Of a stretch of 11,642 bases of DNA, positions 7,214-9,904 are shown piece by piece. Origin of the DNA: a virus; the UHGV virus genome UHGV-0294613; one strand, written 5' to 3'. Made by a program: the position numbers and the translations under genes. Position 1 is the stretch's first letter. Every line of letters starts with the position of its first letter. The notes below the pieces were generated by a model, which was not told the origin of the DNA, did not search any database, and saw only the letters and a list, made by a program, of their open reading frames with translations.

Positions 7214-7238
7214 AATATGTACCTCCGGTGTACATATT
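7214..7238. promoter_or_regulatory. Operator O1 (palindrome)
   Basis: AATATGTAC-CTCCGGT-GTACATATT: perfect 9-bp inverted arms around a 7-bp spacer, overlapping the PR -10, the transcription start and the cro RBS. Confidence 0.6.
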
Positions 7239-7262: not shown

Positions 7263-7265
7263 ATA

Positions 7266-7286
7266 CTTGTACCTTAACGGTACAAG
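7266..7286. promoter_or_regulatory. Operator O2 (palindrome)
   Basis: CTTGTACC-TTAAC-GGTACAAG: perfect 8-bp inverted arms sharing the TGTAC core with O1. Confidence 0.6.
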
Positions 7287-7295
7287 GGTTTTAAT
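7267..7295 (+). promoter_or_regulatory. PRM-like promoter giving a leaderless cI transcript
   Basis: -35 TTGTAC (7267-7272, inside O2), 17-nt spacer, -10 TTTAAT (7290-7295). The predicted start is about 7302, the cI ATG itself, and no SD precedes it, as with lambda PRM. Confidence 0.35.
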
Positions 7296-7301
7296 TTCGT
7301 T

Positions 7302-7976
7302 ATGAAAACAATCCATGACATCCGGCGGTCTAACGCCAGAAAACTGAGAGATGGTGTTGGCGGGAATTCTTCCTTTGCCACTATGATTGATCGCGAGCCA
7401 ACCCAGACCAGCAGGTTTATGGGAGATGGTGCTACTAAAAATATCGGTGACAGCATGGCACGACACATCGAAAAATGTTTCGACCTGCCTGTCGGATGGC
7501 TCGATCAAGAACACCAGACAACGAACATCACAAAAAAACCTGATGTTTCAATCACTAATAAACAAATCACATTAGTCCCTGTCATATCATGGGTACAGGC
7601 CGGAGCATGGAAAGAAGTTGGATATTCTGAGGTTGATTTGAGCACAGCAGAAACGTATCCCTGCCCTGTACCCTGTGGGGAAATGACTTATATCTTGCGG
7701 GTGATAGGTGATTCAATGATTGATGAGTACCGCCCGGGAGACATGATTTTTGTCGATCCTGAAGTACCTGCCTGCCACGGTGACGACGTTATTGCATTGA
7801 TGCACGATACAGGTGAAACCACCTTCAAAAGGTTGATAGAAGATGGGACACAGCGTTATCTCAAAGCGTTAAACCCAAACTGGCCTGAGCCTTACATTAA
7901 GATCAACGGTAATTGCTCTATAATTGGTACAGTGATTTTCTCAGGAAAACCAAGAAGATACAAAATCAAAGCCTAA
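7302..7976 (+). CDS. cI: CI-type prophage repressor (N-terminal HTH plus C-terminal LexA-like S24 autopeptidase), 224 aa
   Basis: C-terminal domain carries the GDSM serine motif and a downstream KRL lysine; an Ala-Gly pair (VQAG/AW) is a candidate RecA-stimulated cleavage site. Divergent from cro across palindromic operators. Confidence 0.85.
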   Translation: MKTIHDIRRSNARKLRDGVGGNSSFATMIDREPTQTSRFMGDGATKNIGDSMARHIEKCFDLPVGWLDQEHQTTNITKKPDVSITNKQITLVPVISWVQAGAWKEVGYSEVDLSTAETYPCPVPCGEMTYILRVIGDSMIDEYRPGDMIFVDPEVPACHGDDVIALMHDTGETTFKRLIEDGTQRYLKALNPNWPEPYIKINGNCSIIGTVIFSGKPRRYKIKA

Positions 7977-7989
7977 TCAATGTTTATGA

Positions 7990-8011
7990 ACCTGCTTCGG
8001 CAGGTTTTTTT
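7990..8011 (+). terminator. Rho-independent terminator after cI
   Basis: ACCTGC-TTCG-GCAGGT stem with a UUCG-type tetraloop (7990-8005), followed by T7 (8005-8011), 14 nt after the cI stop. Confidence 0.75.
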
Positions 8012-8015
8012 ATAC

Positions 8016-8048
8016 TTGACAATGTACCTTTGAGATACATAATGTACC
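8016..8048 (+). promoter_or_regulatory. PL-like early promoter with operator half-sites
   Basis: -35 TTGACA (8016-8021), 16-nt spacer, -10 CATAAT (8038-8043). Overlapping AATGTACC (8021-8028), GATACAT (8033-8039) and AATGTACC (8041-8048) carry the same TGTAC core as O1/O2. Confidence 0.55.
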
Positions 8049-8132
8049 CAAGCGAAACAACGAACAGGCAGGACGCCCACGAAGTAGCCGCCTGGGGCAT
8101 ATGAAGTCCAGGATGATTCGTTAGCAACAAAA

Positions 8133-8166
8133 AAGCGCCCTACAGGACGCTTAGCTCTTTAACAAT
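8133..8166 (+). promoter_or_regulatory. nut-like element: boxB-like hairpin plus rrn-type boxA
   Basis: Hairpin AAGCG-CCCTACAGGA-CGCTT (8133-8152) followed by GCTCTTTAACAAT (8154-8166), which matches the rRNA-operon boxA consensus TGCTCTTTAACAA; about 100 nt downstream of the PL-like start. Confidence 0.45.
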
Positions 8167-8210: not shown

Positions 8211-8417
8211 ATGCACAAAACAGAACCCAAAATCGTCGCGCCTGGCTACACAGATGAGGAAATTTATGAGTGGATGACAAAGAAGCTGGCAGCTATAAAC
8301 CAGCTTCGTGAAGTGCTGTCTTATCGACAGGAAACAATAGACTCCTTAAAAAAACTGGATCAGGAAATCACGGTTTTATCACAGGATGTTACTTTAGATA
8401 TTGTGCAGACAAATTAG
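8211..8417 (+). CDS. Hypothetical small acidic protein, 68 aa (first gene of the PL-like operon)
   Basis: ATG 8211 is preceded by GAGGAG with a 7-nt spacer (the track's 8196 start is a TTG). AT-rich. Its 3' end overlaps the convergent 144-aa gene by 29 nt. No Arg-rich motif, so not N-like. Confidence 0.55.
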   Translation: MHKTEPKIVAPGYTDEEIYEWMTKKLAAINQLREVLSYRQETIDSLKKLDQEITVLSQDVTLDIVQTN

Positions 8418-8823
8418 GATCCCATTCATTTTCGTCAAAATCATCAAAGTGATGAATTTGTGATCTCCAGTCTCGATAATCTAAAAATTTCTGGGCGGTT
8501 ACGCTTATTTTATCAAGTGTGAGTTCATCCTGAATTGAAAGAAGAAGTTCATCAAATTTCATCTCATTAATCTGTTTTGGCATCCAGTGATGCTTCATCA
8601 GAATAAGGTGAACCAGAGCCTTTTTCCCATTCAACTGATTATAGGGAGTGCCGAATTTCTTCCGGTGCTCATGTAAGACAAGGTCCAAAAGAGTAAGTAA
8701 TGTTGCCCTTGATTCAACTTTGCTTATTTCGACTGATGACACTACCCCACTGATTTCAATGCCCCGATACTTTCCAACATTTTCACAGTGGGATTTGTAC
8801 AGCGTATAGATATTACCGGACAT
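8389..8823 (-). CDS. Hypothetical protein, 144 aa, AT-rich, antisense to the PL-like operon
   Basis: Complete ORF; ATG 8823 is preceded by AAGGAAAAG. Convergent with and overlapping the 68-aa gene. No family recognised. Confidence 0.6.
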   Translation of the reverse strand: MSGNIYTLYKSHCENVGKYRGIEISGVVSSVEISKVESRATLLTLLDLVLHEHRKKFGTPYNQLNGKKALVHLILMKHHWMPKQINEMKFDELLLSIQDELTLDKISVTAQKFLDYRDWRSQIHHFDDFDENEWDPNLSAQYLK

Positions 8824-8838
8824 TTCTTTTCCTTTTGC

Positions 8839-8887
8839 GTTGTTGGGGATAACCAGATTAACCGAATCCTTGTTGTTGGGGAATAAC
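8839..8887. repeat. Direct repeats GTTGTTGGGGATAAC / GTTGTTGGGGAATAAC upstream of the 144-aa gene
   Basis: Copies at 8839-8853 and 8872-8887, spaced 33 bp start to start, lying 16-65 bp upstream of the minus-strand ATG at 8823. Confidence 0.6.
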
Positions 8888-9107
8888 TAGGTCCACCTCG
8901 CCTGATGTGGCTAAAAGCAGGCACATAACAGCTAAGTATTTTCAACCAGAGAGAATCCTTAGCGTTGTGGTGAATGCGGCTCAGCGCACGCGGGTTAAGG
9001 TTGAGGCTGACAGTCGACCTTCTGTGGATACCCACCCGCCTGGTGTGCAACCTTCGCCAGGCACCGGGAGGCACCCGGCACCACAACTTTATGCTGTGTG
9101 TAGTCTT

Positions 9108-9154
9108 GGCGGTACCAGCTTGTACCCTTGCTTCCGGCTGGTACCGTCCTTTTT
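9108..9154 (+). terminator. Strong stem-loop with U-tract (plus-strand terminator candidate)
   Basis: 12-bp stem 9108-9119/9137-9148 (CGGTACCAGC pairs GCTGGTACCG, plus G-C and G-U closing pairs), 17-nt loop, then CTTTTT (9149-9154). No U-tract on the minus strand. Confidence 0.5.
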
Positions 9155-9156
9155 AC

Positions 9157-9241
9157 AAAACAGAGAAGAGCATCACCGGACGACGGGCTCATAACCCAAT
9201 CCATCCGGGCGGCTGCCACCGCAGGTGTTCTTCTCTGTTTT
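9157..9241. other. Long-range stem (13 bp perfect, about 18 bp with wobbles) enclosing a 49-nt substructured loop
   Basis: AAAACAGAGAAGA (9157-9169) pairs with TCTTCTCTGTTTT (9229-9241); inner stem CCGGA (9176-9180)/TCCGG (9204-9208). A-tract and T-tract flank the stem as in bidirectional terminators. Lies in a GC-rich stretch with no credible ORF. Confidence 0.45.
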
Positions 9242-9367
9242 GTGGAGAAACTAACCGCCCCTACGGGGGCATTTATGGAAATGTAATTGACTCAATAATC
9301 GCCGGACGGTGAGGGCTTCCTTTTACCGGAATTCAGCGCGGTGCAGCGCATATACGTGGAGAACAAA

Positions 9368-9904
9368 ATGTCATTTATTAAAACTTTTTCCGGGAAGCAT
9401 TTTTATTATGACAGGATAAATAAAGACGACATCGTTATTAACGATATCGCGGTTTCCCTTTCAAATATCTGTCGCTTTGCAGGACATCTTTCACACTTCT
9501 ACAGTGTCGCCCAACATGCGGTGCTTTGCAGCCAGCTGGTGCCGCAGGAATTTGCTTTTGAAGCTTTAATGCATGATGCAACAGAAGCATATTGCCAGGA
9601 CATCCCCGCACCACTGAAACGACTTCTTCCTGACTATAAACGGATGGAAGAAAAAATAGACGCCGTAATCCGTGAGAAATACGGGTTACCTCCTGTTATG
9701 AGCACGCCAGTGAAATATGCCGATCTCATTATGCTGGCAACCGAACGCCGCGATCTCGGGCTTGATGATGGCTCTTTCTGGCCTGTGCTGGAAGGTATCC
9801 CGGCAACAGAGATGTTCAACGTGATTCCACTGGCTCCAGGCCATGCCTACGGGATGTTTATGGAACGCTTTAACGAATTATCGGAGTTACGCAAATGCGC
9901 ATGA
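9368..9904 (+). CDS. HD-domain phosphohydrolase (YfbR-like small HD hydrolase), 178 aa
   Basis: His...His-Asp...Asp pattern (GHLSHFYSVAQHAV ... LMHDATEAY ... D). ATG 9368 is preceded by GGAG with a 6-nt spacer; the track's 9341 start is a GTG extension. Confidence 0.7.
   Translation: MSFIKTFSGKHFYYDRINKDDIVINDIAVSLSNICRFAGHLSHFYSVAQHAVLCSQLVPQEFAFEALMHDATEAYCQDIPAPLKRLLPDYKRMEEKIDAVIREKYGLPPVMSTPVKYADLIMLATERRDLGLDDGSFWPVLEGIPATEMFNVIPLAPGHAYGMFMERFNELSELRKCA

Follow-up and report, generated by a model that had tools for sequence, protein, structure and literature searches.

STnc100 is a multicopy prophage small RNA (sRNA), with eleven copies in EDL933, one of which was confirmed by Northern blot (PMC5331693). 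It has recently been tied to the Hfq-bound PasD sRNAs (bioRxiv 10.64898/2026.05.13.724894), and the STnc100/PasD copies published so far are found downstream of Q, stx2 or late-region morons (PMC12370729; bioRxiv 10.64898/2026.05.13.724894). A second prophage RNA, DicF, lies in the dicB operon of the K-12 prophage Qin and consists of a linker and the terminator GGCGGUAUCAG..CCGCCCUUUUU. Both are compared here with a locus in the virus genome UHGV-0294613, an 11,642-nt stretch of DNA that is called the window. The window is a lambdoid prophage of the e14/SfV/ST64B type, and the locus occupies 8890-9340, where the + strand is the early-left direction. Its best explanation, to which we assign a probability of roughly 0.65 with the roles proposed below included, is a conserved cluster of non-coding RNA modules in the early-left operon, read on the + strand. 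These modules are E1, an STnc100-like element that ends in the terminator T1, and E2, a three-way-junction RNA. Roughly half of the feature belongs, with a score below threshold, to a known family of prophage sRNAs and sits at an unusual place in the operon. A further fifth or so is an RNA motif that is widespread, well supported and missing from the available libraries, and the rest is an intergenic remnant.

The GC content is 0.54-0.55 at 8851-9300 and 0.37-0.45 in both flanks, and region 8890-9340 folds far better than shuffled sequences (z = -5.5 for the + strand, z = -3.0 for the - strand). A preliminary description had called it a GC-rich non-coding region; the composition, the folding and the lack of any Pfam match bear this out. 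All the stem-loops listed there were found, with slightly adjusted coordinates: the hairpins at 9037-9062 and 9064-9078 belong to a larger closed domain (8964-9087), and the hairpin given as 9258-9272 is real at 9257-9270. The suggestion of a structured non-coding RNA gains support from the folding, from an Rfam match to STnc100 and from covariation. Compensatory changes across homologous prophages, named beforehand as a check, were found for E1, T1 and E2.

The STnc100-like element E1 and its terminator

At gathering thresholds, no Rfam family matched in the window; a permissive search returned STnc100 together with a weak match to DicF, so that the covariance-model check proposed at the outset gave a result only below the cut-offs. 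The STnc100 match (RF02076) spans 8934-9157 of the + strand and the complete model (positions 1-206 of 206) with few non-canonical pairs, and its score of 43.4 bits (E = 5e-8) falls 3.6 short of the 47-bit gathering cut-off. E1 shares with the family a closing helix of long range, an intrinsic terminator at the 3' end and its location in a prophage, and both have the motifs UGGUGAAU and CACCGGGAGGCACCCGGCACCA in identical form. Unlike family members, it ends in a terminator of the DicF type rather than that of the family consensus, and its place is the early-left operon, where the repressor gene and xis-int flank it.

The consensus fold of E1 relatives consists of a 5' hairpin, a 9-bp closing helix with four hairpins, a 20-nt unpaired linker that varies between phage lineages, and T1 (Table 1). 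In the closing helix, GUUGUGGUG (8964-8972) pairs with CACCACAAC (9079-9087), and the hairpins that it encloses include CCUGGUG..CGCCAGG (9037-9062) and CCGGG-AGGCA-CCCGG (9064-9078). The ST64B counterpart, which is 78% identical, shows changes on both sides of pairs in the 5' hairpin (GAUAAG..CUUAUC, with A-U in place of C-G), in the CCUGGUG/CGCCAGG hairpin, and all along T1. With a full-length, significant alignment to the family model, and with helices kept through compensatory changes in ST64B and Qin, this comparison of sequence and predicted fold establishes E1 (8931-9154) as a homolog of the STnc100 prophage sRNA family.

The preliminary description had also noted a 12-bp stem with a U-tract at 9108-9154. 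This is T1, a real and conserved intrinsic terminator on the early-left transcription strand (-23 kcal/mol, z = -5.3), which would form the 3' end of an E1 sRNA. Among phage contigs that carry E2, a hairpin with a U-tract occupies the T1 position in 51 of 56 distinct upstream variants, with stems of 6 to 23 bp and at least six unrelated stem sequences, and five T1 pairs are changed on both sides in the consensus fold of relatives. A simple terminator scan does not list T1 because its 17-nt loop exceeds the limit of the scan. The loop does contain TTGTACC (9120-9126), as had been pointed out. However, an operator role finds no support, since this is a lone half-site with no partner at the 5-nt spacing found in the true operators (7216-7238, 7265-7287 and 8023-8048). 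The loop varies among homologs (UUGUACAC, UUUUUUCC), and the stem sequence GGTACC is common to DicF-type terminators in phages with other repressors; the motif is most likely a coincidence.

The DicF match in the window (RF00039; 9095-9149) scores 19.4 bits (E = 0.14) against a cut-off of 48, while the true DicF of Qin (L128) scores 76.7 bits and has a weak STnc100 match alongside (34.4 bits). The K-12 Qin dicB operon is nonetheless built of the same modules in the same order as the window, a closed domain just upstream of dicF, then a linker, then a terminator. The terminator hairpin, GGCGGUA(C/U)CAG..CCGCCCUUUUU, aligns with T1 and is homologous to it, and the closing helix is shared. The linker of the window takes the place of the DicF 5' seed region and aligns with the 5' part of DicF in Qin. 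The position in the operon is also the same, downstream of the repressor on the early-left strand with the 3' end at an intrinsic terminator. There are two differences. The linker of the window, UUUAUGCUGUGUGUAGUCUU, is not the DicF sequence UUUCUGGUGACGUU, and because the seed therefore differs, DicF targets such as ftsZ cannot be assumed for E1. In addition, Qin lacks E2 according to covariance model R1, which was built for that element. Given the score of 19.4 bits and the different linker, 9088-9154 is, as judged by sequence, the positional equivalent of DicF and not a member of the DicF family.

The weak STnc100 match in Qin falls in the spacer between dicF and dicB (L128 2933-3142), which contains an STnc100-like closed domain with STnc100 motifs and, compared with the window, compensatory changes. 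Its perfect 13-bp closing helix, GAAUUUUGUGAUG/CAUCACAAAAUUC, immediately follows the DicF terminator. No description of it as an STnc100-like domain was found.

In some related loci, the E1 position upstream of E2 is occupied by a variable closed domain that holds tRNA-like pieces (L085 1800-1925, L096, L102, L124). An Rfam tRNA match of 40 bits is spread across 126 nt in L085, and the L096, L102 and L124 group has GGGTTCGAGTCCC-type T-arm sequences. ARAGORN called no tRNA among these domains.

The three-way-junction RNA E2

The second long structure had been described as a stem of 13-18 bp at 9157-9241. It is confirmed, and its closing helix P1 comprises 20 bp, around 49 nt that form two hairpins. 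An alignment of 50 distinct E2 sequences (A1), in which 34 pairs were scored, has 93.5% of its cells paired, compared with 41-53% when the partners are slid by 1-3 columns. Eleven of the 34 pairs are changed on both sides (86 cells), and none of 500 shuffles reaches either the observed paired fraction or the observed covariation score. One U.G pair is kept in 45 of the 50 sequences, and other G.U pairs are present. Since these would be mismatches on the opposite strand, and since model R1 gives E2 about 100 bits on the + strand (106) and about 40 on the - strand (42), E2 is a + strand RNA. G.U pairs, U-tracts and covariance-model scores likewise place the RNAs of the region on the + strand, opposite to the 144-aa gene, so that the proposal of a 5' leader for that gene fails. 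These results show that E2 is a separate RNA element under selection for structure. No Rfam family matches it at gathering or permissive thresholds, a full-text literature search for the E1 and E2 core sequences found no paper, and E2 is apparently an undescribed RNA.

The inner loop of E2 first drew notice through a BLAST match in a Klebsiella phage, directly after annotated tRNAs. The tip of the P2 arm, GGG-CUCAUAA-CCC, is identical to the anticodon stem-loop of the E. coli initiator tRNA; GGGCUCAUAACCC equals positions 29-41 of tRNA-fMet, including the three G-C pairs typical of initiators. The loop is CUCAUUA in the ST64B lineage and UUAAUAA in e14. E2 resembles a tRNA further in that a long helix encloses two hairpins, one with a 7-nt loop of the anticodon type. 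However, it has neither a D loop nor a T loop, and in the window the 20-bp helix is followed by GGAGAAAC and not by CCA. ARAGORN called no tRNA gene anywhere in the window, and a search of 8700-9450 with the Rfam tRNA model gave no match at E values up to 10. Nor was E2 detected by the C4 model (RF01695); C4 of P1/P7 and CI of P4 are tRNA-like RNAs processed by RNase P. Only the version found in Klebsiella-type phages carries the likeness further: it has a P1 of 7 bp, an R-CCA end and a length of about 72 nt, and its place is downstream of Q. In 13 of 14 loci it begins 5 nt past the final tRNA of an array; a distance of 19-21 nt from a tRNA is also given for 13 of the 14.

A search pattern for the E2 core, in which 17 bases were fixed, so that the conservation of the core is in part imposed by the search, matched at least 120 viral contigs with 77 distinct variants and 26 species-representative genomes, 24 of them Enterobacterales. 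The genera include Escherichia, Shigella, Citrobacter, Enterobacter, Kosakonia, Leclercia, Phytobacter, Raoultella, Klebsiella, Mixta and Erwinia. Segment 9150-9345, E2 with the sequence downstream, is matched in 3044 of 5426 complete E. coli genomes. Length variants of +1, +2, +3, +21, +24 and +25 nt occur. An assembly labelled Chryseobacterium sp. 18061 (L136) has a complete E2, terminator and downstream hairpin of the enterobacterial type, nearly identical to the Mixta and Erwinia copies, which suggests contamination or a mislabelled assembly. A match in a Pirellulales metagenome-assembled genome is partial and was set aside as chance. No E2 was found in HK022, Qin or K-12 CPS-53.

The sequence around E2 is conserved as well. 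In 110 of the 112 leader-type copies, P1 is immediately preceded by a run of four or more U, so that terminator and E2 form a unit. On the 3' side, GGAGAAAC(U/C)AAC is present in nearly all of 67 distinct downstream variants; the flank is kept even in phages that lack T1, and no start codon follows it. In the canonical order, the GGAGAAAC flank is followed by a UGCA-loop hairpin whose stem varies and whose closing pair is U.G, then by a Shine-Dalgarno sequence and a first gene that is usually yfdP-like or sb37-like. Upstream, a conserved promoter-proximal leader motif lies 350-1485 nt from E2 on the same strand in 54 of 101 loci with enough flank; the copy in the window is at 8050-8125. E2 is a single copy per locus: model R1 found no second one in 40 loci, and none resembling a putR partner was found in the window at up to three mismatches.

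The window departs from the canonical order, since it lacks the UGCA-loop hairpin, yfdP and yfdQ (DUF2303). At about 9252-9256 there is a deletion or recombination joint, which fuses E2 to the yfdQ-yfdR intergenic region. The preliminary description had considered a regulatory leader for the downstream HD hydrolase gene, yfdR. This link is only apparent because yfdP and yfdQ have been deleted, and elsewhere the module precedes unrelated genes (xisE in e14, sb37 in ST64B, a yfdP-like gene in most). K-12 CPS-53 has yfdR; E2 was looked for there and is absent, and its yfdP is a real first gene and not RNA.

Setting in the early-left operon

Positions 8800-9400 (601 bases compared) are 100% identical to a lambdoid prophage of E. 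coli strain 210221272, which is integrated next to a tRNA-Thr gene, beside proA. The early-left promoter at 8016-8043 is the sole strong + strand promoter that a scan found upstream of 8890-9340; the RNA cluster lies on the same strand, about 1.1 kb downstream. The ATGTACC half-sites at 8023-8029 and 8042-8048 resemble the operators between ymfK and the cro-like gene. The features of the locus are collected in Table 1.

Table 1. Features of the early-left operon and of the RNA cluster, with loci in other phages where named
Feature	Position	Strand	Remarks
ymfK, cI-like repressor gene	7302-7976	+	
ymfK terminator	7988-8013	+	
Early-left (PL-type) promoter	8016-8043	+	TTGACA-16-CATAAT; 11/12 consensus matches in promoter scan; directly after ymfK terminator
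Repressor half-sites ATGTACC	8023-8029, 8042-8048		overlap early-left promoter; from operator comparison
Small open reading frame	8211-8417	+	
Convergent gene, ECs1072-family protein	8389-8823	-	
E1 5' hairpin	8931-8963	+	GCUAAG..CUUAGC inverted repeat; folding z = -4.8
E1 closed domain (STnc100-like core)	8964-9087	+	124 nt; z = -3.1; 9-bp closing helix, four hairpins inside
G/U-rich single-stranded linker	9088-9107	+	UUUAUGCUGUGUGUAGUCUU; 20 nt; unpaired in consensus fold
T1 intrinsic terminator	9108-9154	+	stem 9108-9119/9137-9148, 12 bp with one G.U; 17-nt loop; C9149; U5 at 9150-9154
E2 three-way-junction RNA	9155-9243	+	-45.5 kcal/mol; z = -7.3
E2 P1 helix	9155-9174 with 9224-9243	+	20 bp, enclosing 49 nt with two hairpins
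E2 P2 arm	9176-9208	+	tip GGG-CUCAUAA-CCC at 9185-9197
E2 P3 hairpin	9209-9222	+	variable, 4 to ~30 bp among copies
Conserved 3' flank	9244-9256	+	GGAGAAAC(U/C)AAC
yfdQ-yfdR intergenic remnant	9257-9367	+	89% identity to K-12 CPS-53, yfdQ stop to yfdR start
Hairpin GCCCC-UACG-GGGGC	9257-9270	+	z = -2.9
Hairpin GCGC-GGUGCA-GCGC	9336-9349	+	
Shine-Dalgarno sequence GGAG	9358-9361	+	before yfdR ATG
yfdR, HD-domain 5'-deoxynucleotidase	ATG 9368	+	followed by two small genes, an excisionase-like gene and integrase
C4/isrK loci (other phages)	L003 1409-1597; L014 5052-5240; L012 2538-2726		Rfam

The promoter-proximal leader at 8050-8125 is conserved with ST64B (L003 3665-3740; alignment score 96, compared with 20 for shuffles), and one hairpin in it shows compensatory changes (CCUGG/CCAGG in one, CCGGU/ACCGG in the other). 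Some 105 nt past the start of the early-left promoter, GCTCTTTAACAA at 8154-8165 matches the boxA consensus of rRNA-operon antitermination in 12 of 12 positions. It is preceded by a hairpin at 8133-8152 that can also be read as a - strand terminator, and 20 of 101 related loci have a boxA, with up to two mismatches, ahead of E2. Just before E1, segment 8895-8925 (CCACCNCGCCUGAUGUGGYUAAAAGCAGGC) is conserved ahead of different E1-type units and beside different minus-strand genes; it has no match to the promoter consensus. On the opposite side of the immunity region, phages that carry E1 and E2 have a C4 antisense RNA and isrK, both above the Rfam cut-offs; in ST64B these sit within the annotated coding sequence sb41.

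Possible function and alternative readings

The following course of events would account for the modules. On derepression, transcripts from the promoter at 8016-8043 would reach T1 and either stop there or read through. Those that stop would yield an E1 sRNA of about 220 nt, which may be trimmed, as DicF is, to about 55-60 nt and use the linker for pairing; by analogy with DicF and other Hfq-type sRNAs, the variable linker is likely to be the pairing region. Since the genes for excision and integration lie beyond T1, a part of the transcripts must continue through it, and the co-regulation of e14 ymfH with xisE and intE in the YmfT iModulon (PMC12132413) fits transcription past T1. For E2 we favour, as a leading guess, a role in processing and as a leader, in which a tRNA-like core is released. 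P1 would be the processing helix, a substrate for RNase III in the leader version; in the tRNA-array version, RNase P and 3' trimming would take over this task, and the core set free would be the same on either route. Cleavage would part the upstream sRNA from the downstream mRNA and free the conserved core, which resembles a tRNA anticodon arm, and a small hairpin would stay at the new 5' end of the mRNA. In the predicted fold, the T1 U-tract can also pair with GGAGA, which would lengthen P1.

Several points weigh against this picture. E1 scores below Rfam's own cut-off (43.4 vs 47) and belongs to the early-left operon, whereas STnc100 and PasD copies are usually reported from the late region, beyond Q. 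It appears to have no promoter of its own, as the scan gave no consensus match between 8824 and 8934. Expression as a discrete sRNA is known for other STnc100 copies (PMC5331693), and the E1 sRNA is a prediction. The E1 core hardly varies within close relatives, and most of its pairs are for this reason uninformative. As to E2, the conservation of its core is in part a product of the search, although six degenerate positions of the pattern are still nearly invariant. We infer its processing from anatomy, and the near-invariance of its loop and junction bases is a sign of a specific partner.

The preliminary description had named a terminator/insulator pair as one possibility. The first half of this idea stands in T1, a conserved terminator, and there is a weak terminator-like hairpin at 9257-9270. 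The second half does not stand, since E2 lacks a U-tract of its own and is an RNA element conserved in sequence at unpaired positions too. The E1 core is also conserved and matches a known sRNA family, and a plain insulator would need neither a 124-nt closed domain nor a near-invariant 7-nt loop; that the region is only such a pair, with no functional RNA product, is improbable. Much less probable still is that it is a decayed protein-coding gene, a ymfH-like pseudogene. This is how RefSeq presents it: 'frameshifted hypothetical protein' at 8967-9286 is the sole annotation there by PGAP, K-12 e14 has an open ymfH of 103 aa, and an open reading frame (ORF) of 112 aa is open in the window. However, no Pfam family matched the ORFs of the region (112, 95, 52, 114 and 74 aa) or two neighbouring small genes. 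In ymfH, the reading frame is pieced together from two frames of the window, joined by a 1-nt deletion, and among near-identical copies the ORF from the same ATG runs from 7 to more than 146 aa. The YmfH-like ORF shows no conserved reading frame with protein-like substitutions. There is no ribosome-binding site, and ST64B has no annotated ORF over about 800 nt here. The frame switches, together with E2 indels that are not multiples of three, substitutions that are compensatory for RNA pairing, and conserved G.U pairs, argue against a protein, in agreement with the earlier judgement that no ORF here is credible. Both e14 ymfH and the frameshifted pseudogene of the window are probably spurious ORFs, RNA genes misread as proteins. 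The K-12 e14 ymfH coding sequence (L002 3820-4131) covers the end of E1, T1 and E2.

Other readings concern the role of E2. It might act in cis on RNA polymerase, as an analog of HK022 put that makes early-left transcription resistant to downstream terminators. Like put, E2 is an early-operon leader RNA of lambdoid phages with no N-type gene at that place, and it can be promoter-proximal. In L134 the promoter ends 28 nt before E2 with no terminator between, and in L087 a cI-like gene, its terminator and operator-like palindromes precede E2, again with no terminator before it. These distances of about 20-30 nt from the early-left promoter match the position of putL in HK022, and the end of the L087 repressor resembles that of HK022 cI. 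E2 is not followed by an N-like gene, the operon holds hairpins and terminators, and the variety of downstream genes implies that E2 serves the operon and not one gene. Nevertheless, this is unlikely. E2 has no sequence similarity to putL or putR, and model R1 finds nothing in HK022. Each phage has a single E2, with no counterpart of putR. The terminator precedes E2 in 110 of 112 copies and is out of its reach there. The three-way junction has a long closing helix and a P3 arm that varies from 4 to about 30 bp, and the tRNA-array version with its CCA end does not fit. The leader at 8050-8125, which by eye shares ACGAAC and CAGGAUGA with put, fared no better: its local alignment to putL/putR scored 18, compared with 17-18 for shuffles, whereas the positive comparisons (putL with putR, window with ST64B) were far above shuffles. 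Alternatively, E2 could act in trans by imitating the anticodon arm of the initiator tRNA, as a decoy or ligand for something that reads this arm: the 30S P site with initiation factor 3 (IF3), methionyl-tRNA synthetase (MetRS), or a VapC-type PIN toxin that cleaves tRNA-fMet. The identity of GGGCUCAUAACCC with tRNA-fMet 29-41 speaks for this, as do the loop, which is almost invariant although the search pattern left three of its positions free, and the tRNA-sized Klebsiella-phage version. But neither ARAGORN nor the Rfam tRNA model calls E2, which has no D or T loop, and the ST64B and e14 loops differ; we regard this reading as quite unlikely. A target for the loop seen by eye in the small ORF (UUAUGAG then UGGAU, about 8264-8276) has its segments in the wrong order for antiparallel pairing and was taken as chance. 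A wider proposal, which we consider doubtful, would make E2 the first of a new kind of phage leader RNA: a three-way junction of tRNA origin that presents a copy of the initiator anticodon stem-loop, is released from early-left transcripts or tRNA arrays, and either serves as a decoy or ligand (30S P site with IF3, MetRS, VapC-type nuclease) or acts directly on polymerase, with the coupling to the upstream terminator as part of the mechanism.

Taken as a conserved cluster of RNA modules, the region links STnc100/PasD and DicF, which are catalogued separately, as rearranged modules of one kind of prophage RNA locus; the window places a locus of this STnc100/DicF type in the repressor-controlled early-left operon. 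A ymfH clone has been scored as a trigger of the RcaT toxin of retron-Sen2 (bioRxiv 10.1101/2020.06.22.160242); the active agent of that clone could be RNA, which matters for such screens. E2, in turn, is a widespread RNA motif absent from Rfam, and its near-invariant loop, so like that of the initiator tRNA, offers a concrete and testable handle.

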